Source: Chiloscyllium plagiosum
Lineage: Eukaryota
Length of the DNA stretch: 50,000 nucleotides
Direction of reading: 5' to 3'
NCBI RefSeq assembly: GCF_004010195.1
Contig: NW_025214737.1
Coordinates: 1 to 50,000, forward strand
Both the position numbers and the translations under genes were made by a program. The notes under the pieces are model-generated. The model ran no database searches. It saw nothing but the letters and a program-made list of their open reading frames with translations, and was not told the DNA's origin. Shown here piece after piece: positions 1 to 43,951 of this stretch (its first letter is position 1; the number at the start of each line of letters is the position of its first letter).

Positions 1-81
1 AAGAAAGACAAGAAAATTAAGGAGGTTAAAATATTGTTACGTGAACAAAGCTTTTTTTTTTAATGGTAGACAGTGCTTTGC

Positions 82-141
82 ATGTTGTGAATGGTTGTGT
101 TGATATACTTTCTTCTGATGTTGAAGGGAATGATGACCTAA
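82..141 (-). CDS. Candidate 60-nt Ser/Thr-rich exon (xRSSFPSTSEESISTQPFTT) with non-canonical GC donor
   Basis: cactgacag|TT AGG TCA TCA...ACA ACA T|gcaaag; open, phase 1-1; paralog of 1204-1263. Confidence 0.5.
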
Positions 142-489
142 CTGTCAGTGATAAAATTGTAATCAGAGAAGAAAGCAATCGTTCAGTTGCATAGTCAGAT
201 CAAATAATGAAGATCCGTTCAAAGCGTTAAATAAAAAGATGATCAACATAAAGATATTTCATCTACACATATTATGCAGTGATCTCAACACCGAAGTTTG
301 CACACTGTCTTTTATAAATAGTTACAAGGCCTTTTTTTCAACAAACATGTTCATTTTACCATTACAGAGTATGTAAAATTGTTTGTTTCAAATTCAGTTT
401 TCGGGTTCTCAACTTTGAAGATCACTGTGTATGAATTCTGATTTATGACAGGATATACTGTGAGGATTTGTAATTTATTCAGTTCAAAC

Positions 490-695
490 TGTTGGCTCGA
501 TGGCTAGTTTGCCATCCGAACTGACTCCAAAAGCCCGAGTTCAACTCCCAGACCGGCTGTATTTCCTATGAAGATCCTTCCTTCTTATTCTCTCCCCTCA
601 CTTGAGCTATAGTGAAACTCAGATGCAGCTCACTGACATTTGTCTATCTCTACTGTGTGTACAGCACTGTAGTCTGCTTTTCATGTGGTAACTTA
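490..695 (+). mobile_element. Old tRNA-derived SINE remnant (copy 1, inside duplicated unit)
   Basis: A/B-box-like head (ttggctcgatgg...gagttcaactccc) followed by a body shared with 1568-1750. Confidence 0.55.
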
Positions 696-733
696 TTTCA
701 ATTATTTCATGGCTAGATTGCAATTAAATATAC

Positions 734-823
734 CTGATATTTCAGATGGTGTAGAGGTAATCTCAGACGTGGTTGTGTTTGGGGAAGTGCTTCCTATCGA
801 GGTCCCTGAAGTTGTCTGATGGT
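734..823 (-). CDS. Ser/Thr/Pro-rich mucin-like exon (xHQTTSGTSIGSTSPNTTTSEITSTPSEIS)
   Basis: tattttattcttag|AC CAT CAG...ATA TCA G|gtatat; 90 nt, open, phase 1-1, good polypyrimidine tract, sequon NTT. Confidence 0.75.
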
Positions 824-1203
824 CTAAGAATAAAATATCAATGAAAACATGTAAAACTCAATTTTTTTAATACATTGAGCAAAATTAAAGAAAAAAATTC
901 ACGGAATTGAAATAAAACTGATCCATTACTGTAATCCTGCCAATAAAAGATGCCAAGAAGCATTTAATGTGAGTGAGATGGTTTCACATGAAAAGATCCT
1001 CCATGATAGGTAAAGTTCCACATGAATTTTCATAAATTTCAGGCATTTTCTGAGATTAACCTGTTATGAGATTTGTTTTATTAAAAAGGGCAAGAATATA
1101 AAGGAGGATAAAATATTGTCTGTGTGAGAAAAACTGGTTTTTAGTAGATAGAAGATCTACTAAATATTTTACGTTAATAGAAGACGTGATGGTTGTGCAT
1201 TGC

Positions 1204-1263
1204 AAGTTGTGAATGGTTCTGTTGATGTACTTTCCTCTGATGTTGAAAGGGATGATGACGTAA
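1204..1263 (-). CDS. Candidate 60-nt Ser/Thr-rich exon (xTSSSLSTSEESTSTEPFTT) with non-canonical GC donor
   Basis: catcaacag|TT ACG TCA TCA...ACA ACT T|gcaatg; open, phase 1-1; same length and frame as the paralog at 82-141; donor is GC rather than GT. Confidence 0.5.
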
Positions 1264-1567
1264 CTGTTGATGTTAAAATTGTAATTCGAGAAGGGAAGCC
1301 ATTATTCAGTTGCATAAACAGATCAAAGTGTTAAATAAATGAATGATCAACAAAATATTTAATCAATATATATTATGCACATGATCTCAACACTAAAGTG
1401 TACACAACACCTTTTAAGAATAGCTACCAAGCTTCTTTTCAAAAATATGCTCATTTTGCCATTGTAGAGTATAGCAAATTGTTCTTATAACCACTTTGAA
1501 AATCATTGTTTGTTTTTTGATTTATGGCAGAAGATACCATGAAGATTTGTAATTTAATCAGTCCATA

Positions 1568-1750
1568 TTGTTGGCTCAATGACTCCAACTGACTGGATTC
1601 AATTCTCAGACCAACTAGTTTCCTGTAAAGGTCCCACCTTCTTAAACTCTTTCCTCGCCTGAGGGACGGTTATTGTCAGATGAAGCTCGCCAACATAACT
1701 ATCTCTAATGGGTAGTCAGCACTATGGTCTGCAGGAAGTATAATAATTTC
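1568..1750 (+). mobile_element. Old tRNA-derived SINE remnant (copy 2, inside duplicated unit)
   Basis: ttggctcaatg...ggattcaattctc...cccaccttctt...ctcgcctgagg...cagcactatggtctg; same position in the unit as 490-695. Confidence 0.55.
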
Positions 1751-1781
1751 AACTCTACTGTTTGATGGCTAGATCGCAAAC

Positions 1782-1880
1782 CTGTTGTTTTTGGTGTTTT
1801 AGATGCAGCAGAAGTATTCTCATGAGTGGTAGCTTCTGTGGAATTGCTTCTTTTGGAAATCTCAAATGATGTCACATATT
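1782..1880 (-). CDS. Ser/Thr-rich mucin-like exon (xYVTSFEISKRSNSTEATTHENTSAASKTPKTT)
   Basis: ttcatag|AA TAT GTG...ACA ACA G|gtttgc; 99 nt, open, phase 1-1, sequons NST and NTS; lies inside supplied ORF 1705..1890. Confidence 0.7.
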
Positions 1881-2243
1881 CTATGAACATGTGAGTTGGA
1901 ATCGGTTTTTAATCATCTGTCTTTTCCTGGATCACAACAGAGTTTAGTTGAACCAGAACTCTCTAAATTTAAAGGGCTTCTTCCATGTTCAACAGAATTG
2001 CCAATCAGAAGTTTCATTTGCCCTGGCAGTTCCCACAGAACCTATTGAGTAAAGCATTTTATAAAGTCATAATGTGCAGTTTCAATTCATGCTCCTCCAA
2101 AGACTATTTGACCATTGAAATATCTGGACCGTTGATTCGAATATCGAGTTAGGACTTATCTGCTGCTTGTTTAAAGTATTATTTAGTATTATGAAGATTG
2201 AATCTTAACAATTATAAAGCATTGTAAATTCCAGTGGTTTTAC

Positions 2244-2285
2244 TTGTTGAGGATGACATGGTTTCATTCGTAGATAGTTCTGTTG
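2244..2285 (-). CDS. Candidate small Ser/Thr-rich exon (xTELSTNETMSSST)
   Basis: aacag|CA ACA GAA CTA TCT ACG AAT GAA ACC ATG TCA TCC TCA ACA A|gtaaaa; 42 nt, phase 1-1, N-glycosylation sequon NET. Flanks are homologous to the 60-nt exons at 1204-1263 and 82-141. The acceptor is ambiguous (alternative AG at 2296). Confidence 0.45.
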
Positions 2286-2324
2286 CTGTTGTTTCCTGAT
2301 GTTGATGATAAAAGTGTAATGAGT

Positions 2325-2790
2325 AAAAAAGTGTTATTACACATCTCTGAAGCAAATGGGACTTAAGCCAAGTTTTCCTAGCTCAGAGATAGGGACACTA
2401 CCATGATGCCACAACAGCCCTGCTGGGGTAAGTTCAATATTTTTCTAATCAACCTCTTCAGAGATCTTATTACATCCAACTGGAACAGATGGGACTTGAA
2501 TCTAGGTTTCCTGGCTCAATGATTGAGACACAAGAAGTCTGGGTCAAAAAGTGTGGTGCTGGAAAGTGCAGCAGGTCAGGCAGCATCCGAGGAACAGGAG
2601 AGTTGACGTTTTAGGCTTCATCAGGAATGTTGATTCTCCTGCACCTTTGGATGCTGCCTGACCTGTGCGCTTTTCTAGTGCCACACCAGTGCTCAGTTTT
2701 TCCTTGACACAAGAGCTCTGAGCCTGGATAATCAACTTGTTCAGAGATGTTATAATATTCTCCTATGGTTTTCGGCTGAACTGAATGAGA
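2325..2790 (-). mobile_element. Tandem copies (about 3) of a short tRNA-derived SINE, interrupted by a Penelope-derived palindrome
   Basis: Recurring atgggactt..a.c.a.gtttcct.gctca.a.at (2357, 2489) and taatcaac.t.ttcagagat.ttat (2447, 2729); minus strand gives a tRNA-like head. Confidence 0.55.
2543..2690. mobile_element. Penelope-derived inverted-repeat element (family P1), hammerhead cores decayed
   Basis: gtgtggtgctggaaag.gcagcaggtcaggcagcatcc...ggatgctgcctgacctg.gcgcttttctagtgccacac; same family as 18272-18459; remnant cctgatgaagcctaaaacgtc on the minus strand. Confidence 0.75.
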
Positions 2791-3641
2791 TGCTTATGTC
2801 TTCCGCCCATGGACCTTCCATGACAAGTGATGTGTGATGACAAGTGATGTGTGATACCAAGTTTCAACAAAGTTGAATATTTGTCAAAGTGGCCTGTTCT
2901 GAGTCTATGTTTGAAGAAAAAAATGGAATATGTTTGCGTAAGCTTTTTTTTTTGTTCAGTAATTAAATATTGATTGAAGAAATGACTGTGGGTGCTGCAA
3001 CAAGAACAATCACTTCTGTGGGTCCTGAGTTTCAATTAATTCTATGAGACAGGAAAACTAAGTTTGAAAATATCCAAGAGGTTCAAGCATGTTGATTGTG
3101 CCGTAGATGTACTTAGTATTGATAGCTGATTTGATATTATGGAAATAGAATTCAAAGAGTATACATAGACTGAATTTTGAAAACATAGATGGTATTCACA
3201 ATTTTTAAATATATTGAGCTAGAAATTCCAGTTTCTGGTGGAAGAGGTTCTACTTACAGTAACCCAAAAAATTATCCACTTATCTGTCAGTGACCTTTTT
3301 GGGCTAGATTCCAAGTCTTGCCTCTCCCAAATGGATTCATCAAAGTAAATCAGGGAGGAACCCACTTGTTACAGGAATAGCTTTGCATACCAAGACACAC
3401 ACCCTTTAGTGTCATTTGCTGTTGTTTTTGAAGCATTAATGGTCACAAAGACACTTTGGCAGTGATTGGGGGAGGTTATGTGTCTGAATTTAGTGAGGGG
3501 GGAGGGTGGAAAATAGGTGCACAGTGAGTTGCATAGCAGATGGTTAGGAATTTTACATGTTGCAGTTTTGGGAGGAGGGGACAAGGTCCAGATAGCCTTC
3601 ACACTGAGCTTCTGCTCATCTTTCTAGTGGGAGCATCGTGT

Positions 3642-3995
3642 CAGGGAGACAATGGTGTTATTGCTGGATTGTTAATCCAGAGACACAGGTAATGTTCTGG
3701 GGACCCGGGTTTGAATCCTGTCACAGCAGATGGTAGAATGAATTCAATGAAAACCTGGAATTAAGAGTCTAGAGATGACCATGAATCCATGGTCGATTGA
3801 GAGGGAAAAAAACCACGTGGTTTACAAATGTCCCTTGAGGAAGGAAACTGCTATCTTTACTTGGTCTGGCCTATACATGACTTCAGACCCACTGCAATGT
3901 GGTTGTCTCTTAACAGCCCTCTGGGCAATTAGAGGTGGGCAATAAATGCTGGCCTAGCCAGTGACCCTTGCATCATGTGGGGATATTAAAAAAGA
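3642..3995 (+). mobile_element. tRNA-derived SINE whose 3' tail matches the LINE at 26770-27420
   Basis: B-box gggtttgaatcc; ends gggcaattag...gggcaataaatgctggcctagccagtgac...A-rich. Same tail at 16265-16330 and 25938-26015, and reversed at 26775-26850. Confidence 0.75.
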
Positions 3996-4071
3996 AGGCC
4001 AGCCTTCCTGCCCTTGTCCAAATTAAGCTTGAAGGTTGCCCATTGTCAATCAGATTGTGTTATGATTGAAT

Positions 4072-4320
4072 GCCTACAGTGTGGAAACTGGCCCTTCAGC
4101 CCAACAAGTCAACACCAACCCTCCAAAGGTTAACCTACCCAGACTCATTCTTCTAACTAATGCACCGAACCTACACATCCCTAAACACTATGGGCAATTT
4201 AACATGGCCGATTCACCCTAACCTGCGCATCTTTGGACTGTGGGAGGAAATCCGCATAGACGCTGGAAGAATGTGCAAACTCCACGCAGACAGTCACCCG
4301 GTGCTAGCCACCATGTCACC
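4072..4320 (-). mobile_element. HE1-type SINE (partial)
   Basis: Reverse complement of the 13011-13327 copy, with internal deletions. Confidence 0.85.
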
Positions 4321-4464
4321 CCTGTAACCTGTTATTTTACTTGAAGCTAAAGTGGTTGAACCATTGTTTCAGTGGCTCATGGTTATGATTATGTCCTACC
4401 AGTTCTGTGCAATATTAATGAAATGAATAAACTGAAGTTTTGGGCAGACTAGAGGAAAAAGTTA

Positions 4465-4760
4465 TATAAAATTGCTCCATGGATGAGGAATTTCAATAAC
4501 ATGAACAGATTGGAGAAGCTGAGGTTTTTTTCTTAAATGTGTAAAGACTAAAAATAGACTTGCTAGAGGTTCTTAAATGATGGCATGTTTAAGTTCAATA
4601 AATACAGTAAAACTGTTTCCAAGGCTGAATGAAGTGAAGAATGCAGGATAAGGCTTTTGGTAAAAGAATCCAAAGCAACATTAGGAAAGTCTTTTTGATG
4701 CTTCAGCTCGTTGGGACACAAAATGCACTGACCCTCCAAAGAGTAACCTTAATGATTGAG
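4465..4760 (+). mobile_element. Old CR1 LINE 3' fragment
   Basis: Decayed 'Y..RLEKLGLFSL..RRL.GDL.EV.K' region, similar to 31615-31900. Confidence 0.55.
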
Positions 4761-7290
4761 AGGGTGCATACCAATTTAATAGTAAACATCAATAGGTAAA
4801 ATTGGGCAAATAAATTACAAGGTTATAGATTATATTAGACAAGTAGGACTGAAGAAATCATTATGACTTGAAATGTTCACTGTGTTTCTCTCTCCACAGG
4901 TGCTACCAGACCCGCTGAGTTTTTCCAGCTTTTTCTGTGTTTGAGCCAACTACATCCTGTGGCAAAGCTAATGGACTGTTAGCAGAAACATAATGTTTTA
5001 ACTAAATGTAAGTCAACATGAATACAAGTAATCCTCTTTATATTACGTCGTACTGCTGCTGTCAGCACTTATCCCACTGGACTGCTCTGGCCTGCAATGA
5101 TGCTGTATCACATCTATACTATGTTAATAAGGCCAGTAAATCAATTCATTGCTTTAACAATTTTTTGTGTGAAAAAGTGCTCCTAAACTCTATTCAACTC
5201 TCTTGGTCACAATTTTAAAGTTACAGCCCCTATTCTAAAATCACAGGGAATACGCTGGGAAATTTTAATTCTGTTCTGGTTAAAACAGGGCATGAACAGA
5301 ATTATCGTGTGAGCACAGCAAAGAAACCTGCAGAAAAGAAAGGCAATAATGTTGCTGTCTGACAGAAACTCACTTATATCAGAGTGTTGTGTTGCAGATG
5401 ATAAAAATAATTTGGTAGAGAGATTTATGAATAAACCAAAGGAGATGGAAGGATGTTATTCCAGGTAGAAGAGGCACTACAATCAGCAATTGAAATCATG
5501 AACAGGAAAGGAAAGGTAATAGCTGATTGTTGCTTTAGATATCAATGAGAAAATAGAAGACACAATATTAGAGGAAGACTGCATCTTGGTTTCTTGTGCA
5601 TTTAGTCTGATATCAGGATATCTGATCATGGCTTTACTAATGATTATGTCTTTACTGTTGAAATAATGGATATGTTGGAAATTGTATCATGAGAACTGCA
5701 ACTTTGGGTAGAACTTTGTTGGGGCATTGAGGGTCTCACTTGCTGGCTGCATAGAAGACTGGCAAGAGACACCCTGCCAGTTTTTGTGAAGGGCCCCAAA
5801 TCAGGCAGTGGTGAGCCAATGGTGGGCATTCCCCAGAATCAAGCTCTTGAGAGCTGCTGGTCAGTCACAGGTTGACAGCTTTTTTGCTCAGCAGCGCCTC
5901 CAGGGCAACAGCAAAAACACTCTTCCATGGTCTTAAGATTGCAGAATAACCCAGGCCACTAGTAAGTTATGTTGGAGGCTTGGTTTTGTAGGCTGGGATC
6001 AATGGACAGAGAGGTGCAAAAGATTTAGTTGGAAGAGTTGGCTTTCAACTTGTCCTGTTGTCAATGTCCAGTCCCTCAATAAGATGTAGAATGTTATTGA
6101 TTGAGAGTCACCATCTCTGGACCCTGGAGATAATGATCTGCCCACAGTTTTATCGAATATGCATTGATTATGGTGACAACTCCCCACATTGCCTTCCCCA
6201 ACCCCCGCCATGCACATCACATGGTAACAAACCTCCTCCTGCGTTAATACTAACAGGAATGGGAGATAGCCTTTCAGTGATCATTAATCGTTCAACCAAC
6301 ACTCGATTGGCAGTAGGTCAAGCAGTTCAAACATGGGATTTGCCTTTCAGAACTTAGTTCTGGAAAGGAGGTTGGCAAGGTTCAGGAACATATGAAATGG
6401 AAACAGAAGTAGATCATTGACCCTTCAAGCCTACTCCACTATTTAATAAGATCATGGTTGATCAGTTTGTGTTTTTAATTCTGCATACCAATTAAGGATG
6501 AGTCATTGAATTTGCAGAATGTCTCTTCACATTTTTATGACATCCTGTGACTCACTGCATTTGCCTTGAAACCTTTTGTTGCTCAAGTCCATTCTTTTGC
6601 ACATCATCCTGTTTCTTTATTAGATTTCACTGATTATAAATTCTTTTGACTGCTTGTACTTCTTTTGTCATCTCCCAGACTTATTGGGGCTACTCTCTTT
6701 ATATCAGAACATTAGCAGGGGCTTCTTTGCAGTTAGTCCTAATAAAGAAAAGGACCCAACAGCCAGGTCTCAGTAACATTTATCAGGTTTCACAGAGGTT
6801 TGATAAAAACATATGCAAGAAAAATAAAAGTGAAATAGCAAAATTTTCCAAAATTTGAATTGGAGGAAATGTTGCTAGACTGGTTTTTGCACCTATCCGT
6901 CTCTATTCACACACACAATGATGATCATGCCAGGTGAGTCAAAGTAATCATGCCTGCAGCATTTCACATATATTTTTGACTAACGAGGCATGTTGAAAGA
7001 AAACTCCAGCCAAAGGCCGGAAGGTAAGATTTAAAAGAAAGGAAAACAAAAGGATTTTTAAGAACTAATATTTCTGTGCAATGTTTTGGCCAATTTATCA
7101 GAATAACTATTATTTTCTTCTTATAGCACTTGCATTTAAAATAATAATGTTCAGGTAAAGCATGCATTTCTTAGCAGAAATTTTATACCAGCCCACCAAT
7201 ATATTAGCTACATGAACTATACATGATGAATGATCAGACCTATTATTCTATTCAGTGGTTGTACCTATACTGGGTAAGAATTTCAGAATT

Positions 7291-7578
7291 AGTGGAAGCA
7301 GGCCAATTGGTCCAACAAGTCCACACCGATCCTCTGAAGAGTAACCCACCCAGACCTATTCCCCCACCCTATATTTACTCCTGACTAACGCACCCAACCT
7401 ACACATCCCTGAAAACAATGGGCAATTTAGCACAGCCAATTTGCCTAACCTGCATATCTTTGGGTTGTGGGAGGAAACAGGAGCACCCGGAGGAAACTCA
7501 CGCAGGCACTGGGAGAATGTGCAAACTCCACGCAGACAAATGTCTGAGGCTGAAATCAAACCCAGGTCCCTGGCGCTA
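7291..7578 (-). mobile_element. HE1-type SINE
   Basis: gggcaatttagca...gtgggaggaaac.ggagcacccggaggaaac...gaatgtgcaaactccac. Confidence 0.9.
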
Positions 7579-8084
7579 TGAGATAATGTGCCTCCCCAAA
7601 TTAGGAAGCATAAGGAATCACCATCAATTAATCTTTGGGTGAATCTCATCACAAATTCCTTTCGCCTTAGTTTTGTTTTTTTCTAGCTTTGATATTTTTG
7701 CTAAGCCATCCAGACTTCAAGTTTTATTTCAGATCACCAAAGGATCGTGTTGTTAGAAAATTAGGCAAAAACAGAAAGCTAGAACACATGGGAAGCCTCC
7801 CTGTGCTGACTTTCTTAATCCAACATGATGCCTGATTGTAAACCCATGAGACATAGCACTGAAAGGGGTCCATTCAGTCCATTATGTTTGCTTGTTGACG
7901 TTCCTGTCTTATTCCCATCACCTTTGATTCCCTTAATGATTAGAAATCTGTCTATTCCAGCCTTGAATATACTAAATGACTCAGCCTTGGTTAAAATTAT
8001 AATTTCAGATTTTGTTTCCAATAAACTAATCTGGTTAAAACTGGCCTCCAGTTCCCCTTAAAACTGCCTACAACTTGAGGCCTG

Positions 8085-8615
8085 TGTGGCAGGAAGTGGT
8101 TGAGGCCAAACGCCAAATGTTTTCAAGAAGGAGACAAATGTAGTTATAGAGTCAGAGACGTATCGCACAGAAACAGACCCTTCAGTCCACCTCGTCCAGG
8201 CCAACCAGATTTCCTAATCTAATGTGATCCCATTTTCTAGCACCTGGCCCATATCCCTCTAAACCCTTCCTATTCATATACCCATCCATATACCTTTTAA
8301 ATGCTGTAATTGTATCAGACTCCACCACTTCCTCTGGCAGCTCATCCTATACACTTACCACTTGCTGCATGAAATATTTGCCCCTTCGGTCCCTTTTAAA
8401 CTTTACCCACTCACTCTAAACCTATGCCTTCTCGTTCTGGACCCCCCAGCCTTGTTTATTTACCCTCTCCATTCTTACAACTAAAGGGGTCAATGGGTAT
8501 GGAGCAAAAGTGGTGACAGGGTAATTAGTTAGATTATGACCTATGATCAGACTGAATCACAGAGAGGGTCAAAGGGCCAAACGCCTACTTCGACTTCATT
8601 TTCTAAGGTTCTATG
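8085..8615. mobile_element. Nested CR1 3' ends: minus-strand copy (about 8145-8475) inside an older plus-strand tail
   Basis: atagagtcagagac..cacagaaacagacccttc tail matches 9865-10200; flanks end in ttctaaggttctat. Confidence 0.7.
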
Positions 8616-9044
8616 ATTTTAGGTTATGGCTGCTATGATTTATCTGCCAACGTGCTTTTAATGCTCGGAAATACCTTTCTTTTTGCTACTTGTACTCTTC
8701 CACATTTGACTAAGGTCAAAAATGTCAACAATAACATTTTGACTGTTTGTATTACTTAATAATGTACTAAATATCTACTTAGTTCCTTTGTAAGGATGAG
8801 ATTTGTGCAGCCTCATCATTAGTACATACCTTTAAGCCAATATCTATAAGTTTTCTTGGCAGCATTTTCGAAGACCATAACCTCGATCACTGGGGGAGCT
8901 GGGGCAACAGACACCCAGAGCACCACTAGTTCCATATTCTTTTCATAGGCACATACTATCTCGATTTGCCAACATCCTGAAACTCCCTACCCAATAGCAT
9001 GTGAGTGTACTTATAGACAGTTCAAGGAGACAGCTCTGAATCCC

Positions 9045-9222
9045 TCCATTACAGAAACAGGCCACTCAGCCCCGATTGAATCCATATCAACCCTCCAACG
9101 AGCATCCCACCCAGAACCATCCCATCTTTGTAATCCTGCATTTTCCATGGCTAATCAACTCAACCTACACATCCCAGGATACTATGGGAAATTTAGCATG
9201 GCCAATCCACCTGACCTGGGCA
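9045..9222 (-). mobile_element. HE1-type SINE 3' fragment
   Basis: acctacacatccc.ggatactatggg.aatttagcatggccaatccacct. Confidence 0.75.
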
Positions 9223-9864
9223 TATTTACATTATTTTCACTATTTTTGCACAACCCTAGTACATAATTTGTGATGTAATTGAATTGCTGTATTAAAGTTG
9301 TACTTTGACATGGTATCACTTCCAGGATACATTACTACTATTATAATGCCCTTAACATTGAAATTGGACAGTTAATTGCATAACAACATATAAAATGCTC
9401 ATGAGTGATTGCTGGACAATCACTCACCCCATCCATCCTAAAGATCTCAACCTCCAACTTCATCGATCACCAACCCTAAACAATCGCCTCTACAGTCACT
9501 TCAAGATCCACTAACAGGTTGATTCACTGGCATGTTAGGCTCCACAGGAATGATCCTATCCTTACTCTATATTTTCTCTCATGTTTCTAATTTCACACAC
9601 AAGTCTTTTAATAACCTTAGCCAGTTTAATATGTTCTCATTTTCTGGTCTTAATTGTCTTCTCGACCTAACTGTCCAAACATCCCCATTCTCTGCACTTC
9701 AAGAATGGCTTCAGGACTTTCCTTTTCTCTCTTGAGCAATCTGCAACGATTCTACATTCATTCTCAGCCTAGATGGACATATTCTTACATGTAACAAATT
9801 CTCCTTTAACTCAACTCACTCTTTCTAAATATAAGTTGTTGCCAAGGAAAGCAATAATGCTCAC

Positions 9865-10825
9865 AGTCATAGAGTCTTAGGGATATACAGCATGGAAACA
9901 GACCCTTTGGTCCGACTTGTCCATGCTAACCAGATATCCTAAGTAAATCTAGTCCCCATTTGCTAGCATTTGGCCAATATCCCTCTAAACTCTTCCTATT
10001 CATGTACCCATCCAGATGCCCTCTAAATATGGAAATTGTGCCAGTCTCCACCACTTCCTCTGGCAGCTTGTTCCAAAAGCACGACCCTCTGCATGAAAAA
10101 GTTACCCTTTGAGTCCCTTTTAAATTTTTCGACTCTCACCTTAAACCTATGCCCTCTATTTTTGGACTTCCCAATCCTGGAGAAAAGGTCTTGTCTATTT
10201 ACCCTATTCAAGCCCCTCATGATTTTATAAATGCCTATAAGGTCACCCCTCAGCCTTCAGTGCTCCAGGGAAAATAGATCCAGTCTATTCAGCCTCTCCC
10301 TGTAGCTGAAACCCTCCAACACTGGCAACATCCTTGTAAATCTTTTCCAAACCCTTTTAAGTTTCACAACATCTTTCCTATAGCAGGGAGACCAGAATTG
10401 CACACAGTACTCCAAAAGTAGCCTACCCAATGTCCTGTACAGCTGCAAGATGACCTCCCAACTCCTGTACTCAATGCACTGACCAATAAAGGCAAGCAAC
10501 CAAATGCCTTCTTCATTATCCTATCTACCTGCAACTCCATTTTCAAGGAACTAATATCTTGCATTCTAAGGTTTTGTTGTTCAGCAACACTCCCCAGGAC
10601 CTTACCATTAAGTGGATAAGTCCTGCCCTGATTTGCCTTTCCAAAATACAGCACCTCACATTTATCTAAATTAAACTAAACCTGTCACTCCTCGGCCCAT
10701 TGATCCATCTAATCAAGATCCCATTGTACTTCCAGGTAACCTTCTTCATTGTCCACTACACCTCCAATTTTGATGTCACCTGCAAACTTACTAACCTTGG
10801 CTCCTATGTTCACATCCACATCACT
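9865..10825 (-). mobile_element. CR1/HER1-type LINE, RT C-terminus and 3' UTR, frameshifted
   Basis: ORF pieces SKFAGDIKIGGVVD (xADD motif), LEYCVQFWSPCYRKD, RGHRFKVR; tail (catagagt)n. Confidence 0.9.
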
Positions 10826-10969
10826 TACAGGTACCTGCCTTTTCATGGAAAATGTAAGACATGCTTTACATAGTTTGGTTGTAGGCACGAGTCTGACTTG
10901 CAGGTCCATGGATCATTAACTTGCACTTCCACCTTTCAAACATGCCTGATAATGTGTCTTACTTCCAGT

Positions 10970-11190
10970 TGTAGAGTCATAGAATCATATTGCACAGAAA
11001 CAGGCCCTTCAGCCCAAACTGTCCATGCTGACCAGGTTTCCTAAACTGAACTAATCCCATTTGCATGCATTTGGCTCATATCTCTCTACACCTTTCCTTC
11101 CAATGTACCTGTCCAAAAATCTATTAAACATTGTAATTATATCCACCTCTACCACTTTGTCTGGCAGCAAGTACCATCTCATCACCACCC
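10970..11190 (-). mobile_element. CR1 3' end fragment
   Basis: gtagagtcatagaatcat...cagaaacaggcccttc tail. Confidence 0.75.
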
Positions 11191-12230
11191 TCCCTTCCTC
11201 AACCTCCCTGCCCCTCTGCTTCTGAGAACAGGTTAGCGGCCAATATTTTCTGCAAGTCCACCAATTCCCACAACTAATTGATTGCATTTCTTCCAACCCC
11301 ATTTGCTGCAAGGACTTTATTCCAAACTCTCAGTTTCTGTGTCTATGCCCATTCTCACAATGCCACTTTCCACACCAATACTTTGATATGTTTTCCTTTA
11401 TCCTTATCTGGGTATTTCTCCTGACATGGTCAATAGGGCCCATGACTGTATCTGTTTCAGTGCGTCCATATCTGATCACATCCCTTCTTCTACTACACAG
11501 AATCACAATAAAGTGTTTCTTCCACTGACCTTCCACCTCACCAGTCCTTGCATTCAATGAATTATTGTCTGCCATTTCCACTACATCCAGAATGGCACTA
11601 TGATCAATAATATCATCCATTTCCCTCTCTTTTCAGCATTCCAATGAAATTGTTTTCTCTCTGACATTTTGATCCATTCCTCAGGCATCCTGACATCTTC
11701 CTTTCCCATTGTATTTTCCCAACACCTGCCCTTTCTTCTCTCCTTCTCTAGTCTGAAACATTCTTTCCCAGTGAAACTGAGTTGTATTTCTAGTTTGTTT
11801 TTTGCTTGTTTTTACCTCACTTGTATAATTTGCATTTTCATTTCAATTTAGGTTTAGATTAGATTCCCTACAGTGTGGAAACAGGCCGAAGAGCATCCCA
11901 CCCAAACCGATTCCCCTCTGACTAATGTACCTAACACTAAAGGCAATTTAGCATGGCCAATTGACCTAACCTGCACATCTTTGGACAGTGGGAGGAAATC
12001 GGAGCACCCGGAGGAAACCCACGCGGACATAGAGAGAACGTGCAAACTCCACACAGACAGTTACCCAATATCATCTAACCCAGTCCCTGGCGCTGTGAGG
12101 CAGCAGTGCTAACCACTGATCTACCCTATTTAGTATTCTGCATTAATTGTTTACGATGCATTCCTCTCCTCATTGGGAAGATCAACATGGATTTGGTGAC
12201 AACTTACTGAAATAGGAGTGCATGCTTCCA
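11190..12230 (+). mobile_element. Decayed Penelope-like element (RT end / GIY-YIG endonuclease) split by a SINE
   Basis: 12130-12210 translates LVFCINCLRCIPLLIGK..., resembling the Penelope EN motif LVYCIxCxxCxxxYIGET; heavily degenerate. Confidence 0.55.
11854..12119 (-). mobile_element. HE1-type SINE inserted in the Penelope remnant
   Basis: (ttaga)n tail, HE1 core, head gcagcagtgctaaccactg. Confidence 0.9.
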
Positions 12231-12519
12231 ATGAGCCACTTACTCGAGTGTGGAGTTCCCAGTAGACTCCATGCATTAGAGTAGCAGTGATAATACTCCA
12301 GCTGGGGTTTGATCAGTAATTCAAAGAGGTGCTATATATCTTCACTGTTTTTGCATTGCAGCCCTAGTTCTGGTTTCTTACTTTGCTGCATTTAATGCCA
12401 ATGCCACTATTAGATGGAGCATGTTCATGCATGCATGCACAGAATCAGTGTTTTTTCACATTACAATGCTGATGCGATGGGAGAGGTATATTGCAGAGAG
12501 GGCTGAACCTCTGCTCAAG

Positions 12520-12660
12520 AGGCCTTTGAGCAGAGAGGTTGGTGTCAGGTCCACAGGCCTTTGAACAGAGAGATTGGTGTCAGGTCCACAGGCCTTTGAG
12601 CAGAGAGGTTGGTGTCAGGTCCACAGGCTTTTGGGCAGAGAGGTGGGGATCAGGTCTAGG
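12520..12660. repeat. 35-bp minisatellite, about 4 copies
   Basis: Unit aggcctttgagcagagaggttggtgtcaggtccac starting at 12520, 12555, 12590, 12625. Confidence 0.95.
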
Positions 12661-13010
12661 GCCTTAATTTTAATTGTCCCGTGATTAGTGCAGTCATGTA
12701 TCCAACCAGTGGCCACTTTGATGGCAGACAAAACATCGTCCACTTGATTCAAAGCTTAGAGTGCACACTGAGTTAGAAACCAAAAACATAACTGCATTAT
12801 AAAAAGCAAGGAAGATATGCAGAATGTTTCTAAATTACTGATTAAATGCCACATGCAGCATTACCTCCATTCATTCTGCAAGCAATTCTGAGCTCTGGAT
12901 CACCTTTCTCTGTAGTTAGCCATCCACACTACTCCGGTAAAATCAATGCAGTTATTTTTAATCACCCTTTTTAATGTCCAACTCTCCATGCTCATATACA
13001 AATACATTGA

Positions 13011-13327
13011 GGACGGCACGGTAGCACAGTGGTTAGCACTGCTGCTTCACAGCGCCAGAGACCCGGGTTCAATTCCCGCCTCAGGCGACTCTCTGTGTGG
13101 AGTTTGCACATTCTCCCCGTGTCTGCGTGGGTTTCCTCCGGGTGCTCCGGTTTCCTCCCACAATCCAAAAATGTGCAGGGGTTAGGTGAATTGGCCATGC
13201 TAAATTGCCCGTAGTGTTAGGTGAAGGGGTAAATGTAGGAGAATGGGTCTGGGTGGGTTATGCTTCGGCGGGTCGGTGTGGACTTGTTGGGCCGAAGGGC
13301 CTGTTTCCACACTGTAAGTAATCTAAT
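13011..13327 (+). mobile_element. HE1-type SINE, full length
   Basis: Head ggcacggtagcacagtggttagcactgctg (A box), gggttcaattccc (B box), core gtgtggagtttgcacattctccccgtgtctgcgtgggtttcctccgggtgctccggtttcctcccac, CR1-like tail ending taatctaat. Confidence 0.95.
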
Positions 13328-13493
13328 TGCCTTTTGTTGTGTCCACCACTCTTTCTCTGTCTTTGTACTTGCTTAAACCTTGTAACATCACTAACTTTTC
13401 CAGTTTTTTTAAGTTCATGGTTCAGAAACGTTAGTTCTGTTTCTCTCAAGACAGATACTACCTGACCAGTTGAAAAATTCCACCATTTCCTGT

Positions 13494-13674
13494 TTTATTT
13501 TCAGTCTGTACAGCAATTAGCTTAGGAACAGCACCCTGCTTTGATTGTGATTGGTCAGTCGACTCAGAACTGACCCTTCATCCTTGTCAAATGAGTTACA
13601 GAATCCTGACAGTGCAGAAAGAGGTCATTTGGCTCATCAAGACTGCACCAACCACCCAAAGATTATCTCTCCAG
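13494..13674 (+). repeat. 181-bp direct repeat, copy A (copy B at 16371-16551)
   Basis: Ungapped match with only a handful of substitutions. Confidence 0.95.
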
Positions 13675-14150
13675 ATCCTATAACCCTGCATTTACCATGG
13701 CTGATCCACATGTCTGGATACTATGGGACAATTTAACATGGCTACCCAACTTGCAGATCTTTGGACTGTGGGAGGAAACTGCAGCATTTGACAGAAAGTC
13801 ACACAGACATGGGGAGAACTTGCGAACTCGACACAGTCATCCGAATGTGGAATGATCAGATTTCCTACAGTGTGGAAACAGGCCCTTCGGCCCAACAAGT
13901 CCACACTGACTTTCCGAAGAGCAACCCACCCGGACCCATTCCCCTAACACTGCAGGCAATTTAGCATGACAAATTCACCTAACCTGCACATTTTTGGACT
14001 GTGGGAGGAAACTGGAGCCCCCGGAGGAAACCCACGCAGACACGGGGAGAATGTGCAAACTCCACACAGACAGTTGCCTGAAGTGGGAATTGAACCCAGG
14101 TCCCTGGCGCTGTGAGGCAGCAGTGCTAACTGCTCAGCCACCGTGGAGCC
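13595..14150 (-). mobile_element. Two adjacent HE1-type SINEs (about 13595-13842 and 13856-14150)
   Basis: Two successive HE1 cores in reverse orientation. Confidence 0.85.
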
Positions 14151-14279
14151 CATGTCTGTATACAGTGTAGTGAATTGACTGGGATCAAACAATTAAGGTT
14201 TGTAAAACATTGTAAGTAAAATCCACCAAAGTGGAAGTAAGAATTGAACAAAAGAATTTCAGGGAATATCTATGACTTG

Positions 14280-14400
14280 GAAGTGCTGATGTTGGGCTGG
14301 GGTGGACCAAGTTAAAAATCACACAACACCAGGTCATAGTCGAGCCGGTTTATTTGGAAGCACTAACTTTTGCTTCAAAATAAACCAGTTGGACTATACC
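14280..14400. mobile_element. Penelope-derived inverted remnant (family P2), ribozyme core deleted
   Basis: aagttaaaaatcacacaacaccagg...tttatttggaagcacta / aataaacc.gttggactata; matches 14890-14980. Confidence 0.7.
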
Positions 14401-14738
14401 CCAATACTATGATCGTGGAAGATTGTGAGCATTGTTGGATCAGCTGGGATCACACTGAGCAGACTCGATGGATGCCCACTTTTACACCTACGTCTTATGA
14501 TCCTTAAGGGACAAAATTGCTTCTGATTAATTAAACGTTCAGAGTTATTTTTACTAAAACATTCATTTTCAATTTATTCTTTGGTGTATTTAAATATTGT
14601 TGGAGGCTTTTTTCGATCATAGATCTTCGACACTTTGTACAAACAAATACAAATCACTGCAAACTATTGAAAAATCTCAGAAGCAAGCACTGAAGCTGTC
14701 AAATGATTGATTCCGAAGAATACTATTTAACGATTGTC

Positions 14739-14988
14739 TACTATTTAATTATTTAAAGACTCAGCAGACAATCAAGGTATTTTTCAGTGTACAATTTCAG
14801 TTACCTCACACTGTAAATTTTTGCTATAAATTCTGTGCCTTACAATAGTGTCCTCCACAACCACCTGATGAAGGAGCGGCGCTCCGAAAGCTAGTGCTTC
14901 CAATTAAACCTTTCAGACTATAACCTGATGTTGTGTGATTTTTAACTTTGTATACCCCAGTCCAACACCAGCATCTCCAAATCATGAC
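14739..14988 (+). mobile_element. Penelope-derived terminal-repeat fragment (family P2) with 18-bp TSD
   Basis: Flanked by tactatttaacgattgtc (14721-14738) and tactatttaatgattgtc (14989-15006); homologous to 49380-49552 and 17950-18112. Confidence 0.8.
14862..14896 (+). ncRNA. Minimal type I hammerhead ribozyme motif (intact core)
   Basis: cac-CTGATGA-a-GGAGC-ggc-GCTCC-GAAA-GCTA-gtg: stem I cac/gtg, 5-bp stem II, loopless palindromic stem III (AGCT), predicted cleavage after CUA at 14893. Confidence 0.75.
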
Positions 14989-15147
14989 TACTATTTAATG
15001 ATTGTCAAAAAAGAAACATTATCTAGCTGCTTAAACATTTCATGGCAATACGAATAATTAAGGGGTGCTTCGCCAAAAGGTGAAGACATTTGCACGTGTT
15101 CAAAATGATCAATAAAACGATTACAGTTTTCAGCAAGTAACTCTTAC

Positions 15148-15220
15148 CATTACTGTTACAGGGCACTGTGCTAAATGACCGCTGAGCCAATGCAAATAAT
15201 AGAATGCAGAAGAGCCACAT
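15148..15220 (-). CDS. First coding exon (signal peptide) of a mucin-domain cell-surface glycoprotein gene; best candidate CD45/PTPRC, alternatives endomucin/CD34-like
   Basis: Minus strand reads caagATG TGG CTC TTC TGC ATT CTA TTA TTT GCA TTG GCT...AAC AGT AAT G|gtaagag. This gives 24 codons +1 nt (73 nt), a hydrophobic leader MWLFCILLFALAQRSFS and a strong phase-1 donor at 15147. A pyrimidine-rich acceptor (gtttcttattgtctag, ending at 15271) lies 50 nt upstream of the ATG. Confidence 0.75.
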
Positions 15221-15270
15221 CTTGTACCCAGCTGGGGTCAGTTCTTTCAAACGTTCTTCCTCCCAAAACG

Positions 15271-15760
15271 CTAGACAATAAGAAACAACATGTGGACCGA
15301 CAACATGCTAGAAAATAAGAAGCAGCAACATGCCACACTTATGTTGAAGGTGAGACTTTTTTTTTCCTGGTAGAGTATGTATATTGCTTGGACAGAGGCG
15401 GAGTTATGATGCTTTCTGTTCACATTTTATCTCCGAGTAACTTATTTGAGTCGGTGTCAAACCGGTTTTTTTTTGTTGTTTGCATATTTTATATGAATGT
15501 GTTTCGTTTCCTTGTGCAAGTTAAACGCTGCTCAGATTCAATCACCGATCTTCTTTACCCATTTCAAGCCTCGTATTTTGGACTTTGATCTGTCATTGTT
15601 ACCAATCACACCTTCAGAAATCGGCTAATTCAACAGCTTCACTTTCTTTTTGTCCAACTCACTTTCCACTGTTGGCAGACTTCTCCGATAAGATGTGGAG
15701 AAGGAAGAGTTGGATATTTAATAAACCTTAACTACCACAGTAAGACTTAATTCGAATTTG
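15271..15760 (-). promoter_or_regulatory. Putative promoter / 5' non-coding exon region of the minus-strand gene
   Basis: Repeat-free island with more CpGs than the surroundings. Two candidate minus-strand donors: GG|gtaaag at 15558 and AAA|gtgagt at 15662. ETS-IRF composite match GGAAACGAAA at 15511-15502; RUNX match TGTGGT at 15739-15734. Confidence 0.45.
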
Positions 15761-16370
15761 TAAAGCACTGAACTTTTATTATCTTAACGTCAGAAACCTA
15801 ACTGAACCAAGCACACAAATGCTGAGGCTAAAAGAACAGGCATCAGCTTGCTGCAATAAGTCAGGGCTATAATGAACTGTCCATTTCGTGAATGAATGGA
15901 GCTTCCACAATACTCAAAGAGTTCAAAACAATCCAAAAAATCAGACCAATTGATCTGCACATTAAATATTTCTCTATTAGCGCAACATGGTGAAATATCC
16001 ATACTATACACAAGATTCACTGCCAGCTAAATTATTCAACAGTTCCTCCCAAATCAACAATTTCTATCACCGAGAGGAAAGGAAATGCGTAAATGCGGAT
16101 ATCATCACCTCTGTGACCCCCTCCAAGTCATCCACCCCTTCTGTCTATAGCGTGTTTCTTTGTAAGTACCAAATGCTAAAACTTGTGCCATAGCCACCTT
16201 ATGGGAGCACATTCATCATGTGGACTACAATTCAAGAAGACAGCTTGTTATTACTTTCTTAATGGCAAGTAGGGATGGTCTATAAAGTTTGCCAGTGATG
16301 CCCCAAATCCTGTGTATAAATAAATAAATATTCCCTAAAACATTGCAAGGTCAGTCAAAATTTAACAAAA

Positions 16371-16551
16371 TTTATTTTCAGTCTGTATAGCAATTAGCTT
16401 AGGAACAGCACCCTGCTTTGATTGTGATTAGTCAGTCAACTCAGAACTGACCCTTCATCCTTGTCAAATGAATTACAGAATCCTGACAGTGCAGAAAGAG
16501 GTCATTTGGCCCATCAAGACTGTACCAACCACCCAAAGAGTATCCCTCCAG
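16371..16551 (+). repeat. 181-bp direct repeat, copy B
   Basis: Matches 13494-13674; offset 2877 bp. Confidence 0.95.
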
Positions 16552-18271: not shown

Positions 18272-18459
18272 GAGGAGAAAGTGAGGGCTGCAGATGCTGG
18301 AGATCAGAGCTGAAAATGTGTTGCTGGAAATGCGCAGCAGGTCAGGCAGCATCCAAGGAACAGCCCTGAAGAAGAGCTTATGCCCGAAACGTCGATTCTC
18401 CTGTTCCTTGGATGCTGCCTGACCTGCTGCGCTTTTCCAGCAACACATTTTCAGCTCAG
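18272..18459. mobile_element. Penelope-derived inverted-repeat element (P1) with 14-bp TSD
   Basis: 57-bp arms 18307-18363 and 18401-18457 (1 mismatch); TSD agaagaatttctgc at 18258-18271 and 18460-18473. Confidence 0.85.
18366..18396 (+). ncRNA. Minimal hammerhead ribozyme motif (one stem II mismatch)
   Basis: CTGAAGA-a-gagc-ttat-gccc-GAAAC-GTC; predicted cleavage after 18393. Confidence 0.6.
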
Positions 18460-19339
18460 AGAAGAATTTCTGCAACAACTTTATTAATTCACTCCTTCAC
18501 AATGCATAATACTAGATCTAAAAGAACCCATTTCCTAACTGGTTGCTTAACATACTGTCTGGAAAACCACTTTGTACAACCTTCAGGAATTCACCTACCA
18601 CAGCATTCATGGTCATTTAAATTGCCCAGTCTATATCTAAATTGAAATTAACCAAGACTATTGAATTACTCCTGTTTCATGTAGCTCCAATCACCTGATT
18701 TATACCATGCATTTATACAAATATGTTTGGTGGCCTACAAACAATTCTACCAAGCTCTGTCTAAACATTTTCCATGCCCTGTTTTTCCCATCCTCCTTGT
18801 ACAGGTCCCACATGTCCAGAACCCGTCGCAATACCCCTGAGATGTAATGCCCCTGTTTTATTCCATTTTTGCAGCAGTGCTTTCTATAATATTTCTATAA
18901 CCACTAGCACACAGTATTGGGAGTAACATTTAATGTTTTATTCTTCAATCATTTTCCTGGTTTCTTTACCACTGCTTTCAGATCCTCATCCCTATTTGTA
19001 CTTTTATCATTGGTACAAATGTAGACCATGAGCTCTGGCAGTGCTCACTCCCTGAAAAAAAGTGACTGGTGACATCTTGGTGACCTCCTTAACACTGATA
19101 TCAGAGAGGTAACATATCATTCTGACGTTATGTCCATGTCGCAGAAACATCCATCCATTCCTTCAATTATTGATCTCCTACTAATGCTTGCTTTCCACTC
19201 TTCTTCATTGCCAAATATGTAGCTGGGCTGGTTGTTGTATCACAACTTTGACTCCTTCTACATTCCTCCACACTCTCCCCACCAACAAAATGTAAAATCA
19301 TTTAGTGAATAAGATAGATTCAAGGAACTCCTGCCAAAG

Positions 19340-26295: not shown

Positions 26296-26328
26296 TCCTG
26301 AAGAAGGGCTTATGCCCGAAACGTCGAT
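26296..26328 (+). ncRNA. Minimal hammerhead ribozyme motif (intact core)
   Basis: CTGAAGA-a-GGGC-ttat-GCCC-GAAAC-GTC; loopless palindromic stem III (ACGT); predicted cleavage after 26325; stem I weak. Confidence 0.7.
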
Positions 26329-26387
26329 TCTCCTGTTCTTTGGATGCTGCCCGACCTGCTGCACTTTTCCAGCAACACATTTTCAGC
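26298..26387 (+). mobile_element. About 90-bp Penelope-derived insert (P1) with 18-bp TSD
   Basis: TSD tcaatatgatagagttcc at 26281-26298 and 26388-26405; sequence matches 18366-18457. Confidence 0.88.
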
Positions 26388-26769
26388 TCAATATGATAGA
26401 GTTCCAAGTGCAGATTGCTCTGTAGAATTGTGACACTGTAGCAATATCACGGCCCTTGTTGAAGGAAGGGCAGAACATTTCCTGGTTATAGGTGTTAAGG
26501 AAGATAGGAAAAGAAGAAAGGGAGGTGAGGTGCTGGTATTGGTTAAAGAGAGCACTCCGGTCCTGGAGAAAGAGAATGTCTGAGGGGATTTCAAGGACAG
26601 AATTGATTTGGCTAGAGCTAAAACAAAACAGATCCAGTTACAATATTTGGTGTAGTCTACAGATTACCAATTAGTGAAAAGGATGTAGAGGAATAGTTAT
26701 GCAAGGAAATTGCAGGGAGGTGCAAGACAGTAGATATAATTGGGGGACTTCCTGGATATAGGCTGAGAT

Positions 26770-27699: not shown

Positions 27700-28730
27700 T
27701 TACGTGATGTGGTAATTCTATGGCTTTAAGGGGTGTATTTTGTCCTGGTGTTTTTTATGAAGAGAGATTACGACAGAGGTGTAGAGTGGTCTGCTCCAAG
27801 CCAATAAAGTAAACAGCTTGTCGTGACTTTGATGAAGAAAGACTGAGGCATTCAGTGTGGGAAAAAAGGGACTGAAATGGACTGTGGTAGTGAATGTTTG
27901 CATGCTTAGAGTCAATGTAATGTATGTGTATTGTAATTTACTAAGAATGGAAAACTAAAGGTTTTTACAGATGAAGCCATCTTTATATAATGATGGTTCT
28001 TTCTTTTTCAGGGGTGTTTGCATCTCAATACTACTACAGGTGTATTTGTCCTTTTTTCAGGAAGGAAGGTTGAGACAGAGGTGTTGTGCAGTCTGCTCAA
28101 AACCAATAACGTAATCAGCTTTTAAGGCCTTGGGTTTGTTTTTTAAAGTTGGAAAAATAGAAGCAGTCTGAATGAGTGAGTCAAACTCTGACACAACCAA
28201 GATTTTTAGTTTTAGCTTTCAGCAGTTTTGGGGGTTTTAAAGCTGGGTTAGGAAGCTCTAATTCCTCTCTCTGTTACAGCTAAAAGCTGGGGTTCTCTTC
28301 CTGCTGCGAGAATTGCTTATGAGACTATTTTACTGAATTTGTCTTTGCTAAGCTGTATTTATGGGATGTGTGATGGTGTTGCTCCTTTACCCAGATTATG
28401 TTGTTCTTGGTGGGGTTTTTTCAGAGTAACCAGTGATTCTGAAAAGTCTGGCTTGGATGGGGTTTAGGGCCAATTTGATTATAACTAACAGATATAAACA
28501 AAATGAAAGTGGAGTGGCTAGTTCTCCCAGCTCAGCTTTTCTCAGGTTTGATTTAGGTTTTGGCAGTCTGTTTATTCACTGAAAGCAGGCAGGCAGTTTT
28601 GAGGCTGCTGGTCCAAGAAACAGCTCCATGGAAGAAGGTGTCCCATGCTGAATCCCTCCCTCTCCTGTAAGACCCTGTGTTTGATTATACCTTTTGAGCC
28701 AAAGATTATTTATGGGGATTGTTGCAAGGA
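27700..28730. mobile_element. Cluster of related LTR-like fragments beside the Gypsy pol remnant
   Basis: 27730-27820 resembles 28038-28122 (ggtgtattt.gtcc...gacagaggtgt...gtctgctc.aa.ccaataa.gtaa.cagctt); 28200-28365 resembles 28540-28725. Confidence 0.55.
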
Positions 28731-28734
28731 TTCT

Positions 28735-37170: not shown

Positions 37171-37179
37171 TCATGTGAA

Positions 37180-37929
37180 ACACTTTACAACTTCATGGAT
37201 TGAAAGAATCAGCAATAACTCTTTCTGGAATAAACTATTTCTTGAGATGAAAGAAACAAGGAGAAACTGTTTATAAAGTAATAAAAGCAATACATGATTT
37301 TAACCATTCCTGGAAAGAAAGAGCATAAACAAGCTGTTTCCTGGAAGAGCGGAGATTACAATTGCCTGATTATCTACTGCTTCGTGACAAATGCACAATT
37401 AAGACTGCCTGCAGAGGGAATGTTCTGAAGTAAAGGAGTTCATAACAGGATCAGCTGTGTTTTAAACAAGCAGCTAAGTCTTAATGTAACAAAGAACATC
37501 AGAGCTACTTCTGATAAGAAGGCAAGCTACAGACTTGAGGTCTCTAGAAATGTGATCAATGTTGGGGATCAGAGAATCTAAAGAATCATCAACGATGTCA
37601 CACCACAAACCGGAAAGAGAGAAAATTTTATAAGAATCCAATTTTTTAAGAATTCAGTGGCAGAACTTCGAAGAACAATACTGCGCAATGATCAAACTGT
37701 GGGCAATTCCACAGACAGATCCTGTTGGTTGGAATCCTGGCCATTAATCCACTATTAATTAGGTAAATAGCCAAGTTAGGTTGTAAGATTTAACTTGCTT
37801 ACTTGAAGAGTCTTATTTTGGTTGTTACGTGCAATAAAGTTTAAATCATTGTTTCAGTACTTGACTGTCTATGAGACTTGTTAATAAGTAGCTGAATTGA
37901 AGGTAACTTGTGGTGATTAACCCACAACA
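37180..37929 (+). mobile_element. LTR (left end probably truncated by the CR1)
   Basis: AATAAA at 37833-37838; ends ...cacaaCA at 37929, directly followed by a 2-nt spacer and a PBS. Confidence 0.6.
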
Positions 37930-40687: not shown

Positions 40688-40782
40688 TCCTGGTGAAGGG
40701 CTTACACCTGAAAAGTCGACTTTTCTGCTTCGTAGATGCTGCCTGACAGGCTGTGCTCTTTCAGCACCACACTCATTGATTC
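40688..40782 (+). mobile_element. Decayed P1 Penelope-derived fragment
   Basis: cctggtgaagggcttacacctgaaaagtcga...gatgctgcctgac; core mutated. Confidence 0.7.

Positions 40783-42886: not shown

Positions 42887-42920
<34 letters not shown>
42255..42920. repeat. Degenerate (CA)n/(CT)n microsatellite field split by an HE1 SINE
   Basis: CA-rich tracts at 42255-42480 and 42817-42920. Confidence 0.9.
42486..42816 (+). mobile_element. HE1-type SINE, full length
   Basis: gggcggcacggtggctcagtggttagc...ggttcgaatcc...aatctaacctaatcta. Confidence 0.95.
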
Positions 42921-43823: not shown

Positions 43824-43951
43824 CTTCATCAGGAATAATGAAGGGCTTATGCCCAAAACGTCGATTCTCCTGCTCCTCGGATGCTGCCTGACCCGCTGTA
43901 TCTTCCCAGTTCCGATTCTGCTCTCCAGCATCTGCAGTGCTCACTTTCTCC
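43824..43951 (+). mobile_element. Decayed P1 Penelope-derived fragment
   Basis: cttcatcaggaataatgaagggcttatgcccaaaacgtcgattctcctg...ctccagcatctgcag. Confidence 0.75.

Follow-up and report, generated by a model that had tools for sequence, protein, structure and literature searches.

Five small Ser/Thr-rich segments lie within 2.3 kb at the left end of a 50-kb stretch of DNA from the shark Chiloscyllium plagiosum (hereafter the window, meaning the whole stretch analyzed), which is repeat-rich vertebrate DNA with a GC content of about 40%. The locus raises the question whether these segments are exons of one glycoprotein gene, how they multiplied, and which of them are still in use. A preliminary description had regarded them as a mucin stalk made of five symmetric exons. 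Its inventory agrees with ours, because five small open segments of 42, 99, 60, 90 and 60 nt were recovered on the minus strand (Table 1), the phase-1 reading of which yields a Ser/Thr content of 44-68%. However, the assignment as symmetric phase 1-1 exons holds in canonical form for only two of the five, the long segments L1 and L2, whereas the three short copies A, B and C could be spliced only at sites that deviate from the consensus, and in each of them one ancestral boundary is damaged.

The clustering of such frames is difficult to ascribe to chance. Among 37,230 stop-free 19-codon windows in all six frames, the Ser/Thr tracts over B, L2 and A rank as the top three, with L2 and A tying at 0.63 Ser/Thr with one unrelated tract. 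That the segments never were exons but represent reading frames which by accident are rich in Ser/Thr, within an AT-rich intron that was duplicated, appears hardly credible. The splice scores, which were calculated with rough weight tables, are indeed moderate, and over 13 codons accidental tracts elsewhere in the window are about as rich in Ser/Thr; however, five tracts occur in 2.3 kb on a single strand, C is enriched at codon position 2 (0.53-0.68 vs 0.06-0.21 at the other positions), L1 and L2 are flanked by AG and GT in one phase, and the sole indel of the long pair measures 9 nt.

Table 1. Features of the Ser/Thr cluster and the upstream signal exon, in window coordinates (a slash marks the exon end).
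Feature	Position	Strand	Remarks
Duplicated unit 2	1..848	-	Homology reaches the window edge (base 1)
Short copy C, core	82..141	-	RSSFPSTSEESISTQPFTT; possible ends GT +33 (109), GC +60 (82), GT +101 (41)
SINE-like insert, copy 2	485..700	+	A/B-box-like motifs at 493/538
L2, 90 nt	734..823	-	AG...GT, phase 1-1; HQTTSGTSIGSTSPNTTTSEITSTPSEIS; sequon NTT
Duplicated unit 1	1084..1897	-	From the acceptor of L1 to a point about 120 nt beyond copy B; nhmmer extent and alignment
Copy B, tail	1173..1203	-	Homologous to the coding tail of A; TTITSSIN in shifted frame only; ends at ancestral GTAAAA
Short copy B, core	1204..1263	-	TSSSLSTSEESTSTEPFTT; possible ends GT +33 (1231), GC +60 (1204), GT +91 (1173, out of frame)
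SINE-like insert, copy 1	1564..1755	+	Antisense to the gene; A/B-box-like motifs at 1572/1596
L1, 99 nt	1782..1880	-	AG...GT, phase 1-1; YVTSFEISKRSNSTEATTHENTSAASKTPKTT; sequons NST, NTS
Short copy A	2244..2285	-	Reads TELSTNETMSSST; ancestral GTAAAA donor kept
Signal-peptide exon, coding part (probably first coding exon)	15148..15220	-	MWLFCILLFALAQRSFSTVPCNSN + 1 nt; donor ATG/GTAAGA, strong, phase 1
Candidate acceptors near the signal exon	15270, 15307	-	

A candidate gene on the minus strand

We infer that a gene on the minus strand, coding for a glycoprotein that is either secreted or a type I membrane protein, has its 5' end in the window. The ATG of the putative signal-peptide exon stands in a good Kozak context and is followed by a hydrophobic core. 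It is the sole place in the window where a Kozak ATG, a hydrophobic core and a strong phase-1 donor are combined; by these criteria, which were chosen post hoc, 0.2 matches are expected per resampled window and at least one was found in 10 of 60. The exon is located 13 kb upstream of the Ser/Thr cluster on the same strand, could be spliced in frame to L1 or L2, and is what one would expect at the start of a gene for a mucin-stalk protein, a support for the mucin reading that the preliminary description had not invoked. Strand, phase and position suggest that the signal exon and the cluster belong to one gene. Pfam searches with 290 of the 359 repeat-poor open reading frames of at least 45 aa gave no sign of another host gene over the upstream 35 kb; 12 frames matched, ten to transposon domains and two by sub-threshold chance hits. 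The 69 frames outside the scan fall mostly within 1-15 kb or on the strand opposite to the LTR element mentioned below.

The region 15250-15800 on the minus strand contains IRF-like, RUNX-like, GATA-like and TATA-like words and is a putative promoter or untranslated first exon. Upstream of the signal exon, AAAGTGAA at 15645 is a putative IRF-like motif, accompanied by GAAA-N-GAAA at 15510. Moreover, the signal exon is flanked on both sides by a direct repeat of 181 nt (13494-13674 and 16371-16551, 95.6% identical), which is much younger than the exon duplication.

Tandem duplication and its age

The proposed tandem duplication of a two-exon cassette was borne out by blastn (73-793 vs 1195-1850, E 4e-72), alignment and profile searches, which agree that a long exon, the following intron and a short segment were copied together. 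An nhmmer profile of both units starts about 20 nt ahead of the long-exon acceptor and extends on to base 1 of the window, and further units may exist past the left edge, as had been suggested before. The stated homology of the introns 142-733 and 1264-1781 was confirmed, with 393 of 510 positions identical (77%, z 30.8 vs shuffles) and a Jukes-Cantor distance of 0.27. Their alignment of about 560 nt contains 16 gaps, 15 with a length not divisible by 3. Mutual homology between long and short exons was undetectable (p 0.07-0.79).

A period of about 1.1 kb had been described for the whole array. The segment spacings of 1022, 1057 and 1122 nt are in line with this view for one duplication and a third short copy, but the other introns, from A to L1 and from B to L2, show no alignable homology (p 0.43-0.53). 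In addition, nhmmer revealed no additional long-exon, intron or SINE-like copy across the window, and none to the right. Hence, the data show a single duplication and, in addition, a third copy of the short segment, not a long array. A relaxed scan of 2290-15140 for more Ser/Thr-rich phase 1-1 exons returned one match of 27 nt, which lies inside a repeat. Three stretches (about 3114-3087, 3041-2950 and 4480-4330) were considered as decayed extra copies and then discarded, because their local scores were equalled by 53, 9 and 19 of 100 shuffles, respectively. The stretches 2950-3114 and 4330-4480 on the minus strand have the faint look of decayed Ser/Thr exons, including a strong acceptor at 3041 and a GTAAAA donor at about 4340.

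Both homologous introns carry an insert of about 200 nt, the copies of which are identical at 137 of 187 positions (73%). The preliminary description had named it the same SINE at the same position. The place is indeed shared, and both copies, which are antisense to the gene, have heads resembling the pol III A and B boxes, on which the designation as SINE-like is based. Compared with degenerate A and B box patterns, copy 2 has 1 + 1 and copy 1 has 1 + 2 mismatches; Rfam and ARAGORN found no tRNA match in the insert. Its identification as a SINE is plausible. A third copy was not found within the 50-kb window. Since the position is common to both introns, the insertion is older than the duplication, in agreement with the order of events proposed before.

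The distance between the introns also permits an age estimate. Whale shark and zebra shark are reported to differ by a dS of 0.061-0.111 over about 50 My (PMC13100897), and the intron distance of the present locus corresponds to 2.4-4.4 times this value. Assuming similar rates and no gene conversion, the duplication would be roughly 120-220 million years old and thus not recent. Hence, the term lineage-specific expansion, which had been used for the locus, was too strong, and an age of this order implies that the duplicated arrangement should be common to many sharks.

The long exons

The earlier statement that the long exons diverged strongly while keeping frame, phase and Ser/Thr content is supported by their homologous AG and GT ends, their open reading and the presence of only a single indel of 9 nt. 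L1 and L2 are identical at 59 of 90 positions (66%), the 31 differences include no stop, and their homology is significant against a codon-keeping null (p 0.0005). Their identity is lower than that of the intron (66% vs 77%; p 0.024 by Fisher's test, without correction), their dN/dS is 1.06, and 19 of the 29 aligned residues are altered in Ser/Thr status or identity. Regarding the N-glycosylation sequons, which had been described as kept, each long exon possesses some, but N12 and N21 of L1 and N15 of L2 are non-homologous, the residues aligned to these Asn being T, I and E. The splice sites are moderate, with acceptor scores of 3.2 and 2.8 and donors exceeded by 11% and 7% of the background GT sites.

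When neutral decay was simulated with intron rates, both copies kept dinucleotides, frame and open reading in 3.4-3.8% of the runs, while all features were kept in both copies in 1.3-1.4% with the exons' own divergence. These values (p 0.013-0.038) moderately favour a function, and the long exons are probably functional. A dN/dS near 1 cannot separate a free spacer from dead DNA. Owing to phase 1-1, L1 and L2 could be skipped in frame, and the combinatorial skipping proposed before may occur.

In this regard, it should be considered that the whole cluster could be dead, either as pseudoexons in the intron of a live gene or as part of a pseudogene, in which the Ser/Thr bias persists via slow mutation. 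We regard this as unlikely. A dN/dS of about 1 in both the long and the B/C pair would be compatible with it, as would the finding that no database protein contains any of the exons, which is weak evidence. Moreover, slow substitution in sharks has been reported (PMC10587355, PMC13100897), with a per-generation mutation rate of 7e-10 given in the former source. However, the long pair keeps its splice dinucleotides, frame and open reading to an extent that neutral decay seldom produced in the simulations, and the signal exon looks intact with its strong donor.

The short copies

The boundaries of the short copies present a different picture, because each of them lost one end: A lost the acceptor, B the frame to the GT donor, and C the donor itself. 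Copy A is paralogous to B and to C (p 0.0005 vs triplet and Markov nulls, which provide the valid test, since the nhmmer match to A is circular with A inside the model). Its tail is likewise related to that of B (NETMSSST vs TTITSSIN, p 0.001-0.0025), a codon-for-codon match requiring the shifted frame; the tail of B carries two insertions of 2 nt. The GTAAAA donor is kept in A (2244) and B (1173) and deleted in C. We infer that the ancestral short exon was about 87 nt long and of phase 1-1, with the acceptor as in B and C and the GTAAAA donor as in A and B.

The boundaries given before for the 42-nt candidate were not confirmed. Copy A is 26 nt shorter than B at its 5' end, where the ancestral B/C acceptor is missing. 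The first AG (2295) is the better one and gives a 52-nt exon of phase 0-1, while the AGs at 2285 and 2279 are in phase 1 but poor; the second AG, needed for the 42-nt form, is purine-flanked and scores -2.9. Both 60-nt candidates end at GC instead of GT (CTT/GCAATG in B and CAT/GCAAAG in C), with 4/9 and 5/9 consensus matches. Natural GC donors are reported to be on average closer to the consensus at the other positions and stronger there than GT donors (PMC3167603), and B and C do not show the otherwise near-consensus donor expected of GC-AG alternative exons. Regarding the other possible ends, about one in three background GT sites scores higher than the GT at +33, the use of which would assign 27 nt of Ser/Thr codons to the intron. 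The GT at 41 in copy C, giving 101 nt, is in phase 0 and lies past a run of 10 A; with one more A, a 102-nt form of phase 1-1 would result.

On the other hand, the cores of B and C look constrained as well. They are identical at 53 of 60 positions (88%, while the intron has 77%; p 0.047 without correction for the nine segments that were compared) and belong to a gap-free block of 99 nt, which ends 9 nt past the GC, where indels resume. Both copies have three sites in common, namely the AG of the acceptor, a GT at +33 and a GC at +60. For the 60-nt form the neutral-decay p is 0.018-0.052, close to the values of the long exons, with the GC end chosen post hoc. Five of the seven differences change the residue, dN/dS is 0.88, and Ser/Thr amounts to 10/19 in C vs 13/19 in B. 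From the gap-free and highly similar core and the decay values it follows that a new weak donor, GC +60 or GT +33, may have been adopted before the duplication.

If so, all five segments could be live, with the short exons serving as regulated cassettes, in a manner resembling the CD45 exons A/B/C, through a weak donor gained prior to the duplication; in one variant B and C would be used as 33-nt GT-ended forms. We consider this rather unlikely. The gap-free similarity of the cores, with indels restarting just after the GC, and the three shared sites would be explained by such a scenario, and weak sites are in general typical of alternative exons. However, the GC sites are far from the consensus expected from PMC3167603, the alternative GT is weak and strands Ser/Thr codons in the intron, copy A would require its purine-rich second AG, and the dN/dS of B and C is not much below one. 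About even chances are given to the reading that the long exons persist and drift while the short copies with their lost boundaries are dead or marginal; the loss of one end in each short copy suggests that they are dead or included at a low level.

Proposed history of the spacer

In this preferred reading of persisting long and failing short exons, the signal exon (phase 1), an intron of 12.9 kb and the following Ser/Thr exon cluster would encode an O-glycosylated N-terminal spacer. One tandem duplication copied a long exon, the insert-bearing intron and a short Ser/Thr segment, and the more diverged copy A lies upstream. L1 and L2 would be live symmetric exons, the sequence of which is free to drift while frame, splice dinucleotides and hydroxyl residues are kept, which would mean that the spacer is selected for length and glycan load above sequence. 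The symmetric phase would permit copies to be gained or lost without frame shift. The short copies would go back to a single ancestral exon, symmetric and about 87 nt long, and might now be dead or show low inclusion via weak substitute sites. In such a history, spacer exons would have arisen, drifted and in part died.

Database and literature searches

The searches with protein queries have to be seen in light of the short, low-complexity sequences; they covered the signal exon, L1 and the B/C pair, and four queries were padded with flanking codons. For these reasons, the blanks represent weak evidence. The signal-exon frame gave 7 candidates among 5.8 billion proteins, none of them at E<=10, and 0 matches at E<=0.001 among 1.84 billion representatives. 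In the protein database, the L1 frame returned 8 candidates and the B/C alignment 284 candidates, none usable. In the ESM Atlas, the signal exon had no usable match, and the best value for L1 (0.79) belonged to bacterial hypotheticals at chance level. A 6-kb query against RNA datasets produced no match, which is uninformative, because the exons account for only about 3% of the query words. Literature searches, made for an unnamed gene and outside subscription journals, found no paper on shark CD45 exon structure or on this locus.

Comparison with CD45 and other mucin-type genes

CD45 comprises a signal exon, a long intron and clustered Ser/Thr-rich exons of phase 1-1. Three variable O-linked exons in horn shark CD45 were reportedly described by Okumura in 1996, and the extra N-terminal exons of catfish CD45 are said to have arisen by exon duplication. 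The shark locus resembles vertebrate CD45 in the phase-1 signal exon, which is not CD45-specific, and in the symmetric Ser/Thr-rich exons L1 and L2. It differs in that the window is without Cys-rich, fibronectin III, transmembrane and phosphatase exons (Pfam, 290 of 359 open reading frames), which would lie past the left edge, and in its smaller exons compared with the mammalian A/B/C exons. The short, low-complexity queries gave no match to CD45 proteins. CD45/PTPRC is a possible identity of the predicted gene, with clearly less than even odds.

The combinatorial splicing of the N-terminal exons 4/5/6 (A/B/C) has been reported for human CD45 (PMC2213029), and splicing of exons 4-6 for Atlantic salmon (PMC6362898). 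For channel catfish CD45 (PTPRC), thirteen alternatively spliced exons are on record (Kountikov et al. 2004, PMID 15236932, as cited in PMC7844397), and isoform expression is the subject of a follow-up paper (PMID 20547174, as cited in PMC11426453). Catfish CD45 is a fish gene the O-glycosylated N-terminal region of which reportedly contains more small exons than its mammalian counterparts; its splicing was reportedly established from cDNA, whereas two clearly intact exons and three damaged copies are deduced for the shark locus from the genomic sequence. It is quite improbable that the locus represents a shark leukocyte sialomucin, possibly CD45, with an ancient and fully live array, GC-switched short exons and diversifying selection on the long exons, a view of L1 and L2 that derives from their faster divergence compared with their own intron. 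If such a fully live array existed, cartilaginous fish would have a parallel to the multi-exon CD45 of catfish, and nature would provide a test of how very weak GC donors are used. Moreover, if the gene is CD45, the locus would tell something about which isoforms are available in the most ancient lineage that possesses adaptive immunity.

Mucin stalks with small symmetric exons are also found in endomucin, the CD34/podocalyxin family, CD164 and the adhesion GPCR ADGRG2. These other sialomucins share with the shark locus the signal peptide followed by small phase-1 Ser/Thr exons and the rapid sequence turnover, while the alternating two-exon cassette with the shared SINE-like insert is specific to the shark locus. 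As in the duplication of symmetric mucin exons, homologous exons and a flanking intron are arranged in tandem, with canonical phase 1-1 in two of the five segments. The locus thus adds one further, modest example to a process already known, the duplication and turnover of symmetric mucin exons, and what can be learned from it in general is limited for this reason. Provided that the long exons are live, it offers a clean natural experiment with the duplicated intron as an internal neutral clock, in which spacer exons keep frame and splice sites and change their residues freely, while their partner exons lose boundaries.

Repeats elsewhere in the window

A broken LTR retrotransposon occupies 28709-30927 on the minus strand, with integrase fragments upstream of reverse transcriptase and RNase H in reading order, which we take to be the order of Gmr1-type Gypsy elements. 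Second integrase fragments at 47533-48231 on the minus strand comprise an H2C2 zinc finger and the core domain, both below the Pfam cut-offs. A broken LINE with endonuclease and reverse transcriptase fragments is situated at 34985-37192 on the minus strand, and related LINE 3' ends are scattered in the window. Long degenerate CA repeats at 42260-42480 and 42815-42920 flank a SINE copy and yield false Thr/His-rich frames. An Rfam match to MIR533 at 2553-2684 (37 bits vs a gathering threshold of 80) was rejected as a microRNA and attributed to the hairpin of a palindromic repeat at 2551-2686. Such short palindromic repeats are dispersed over the window and were observed at 2544-2686, 18274-18460, 26297-26390, 40689-40779 and 43839-43951.
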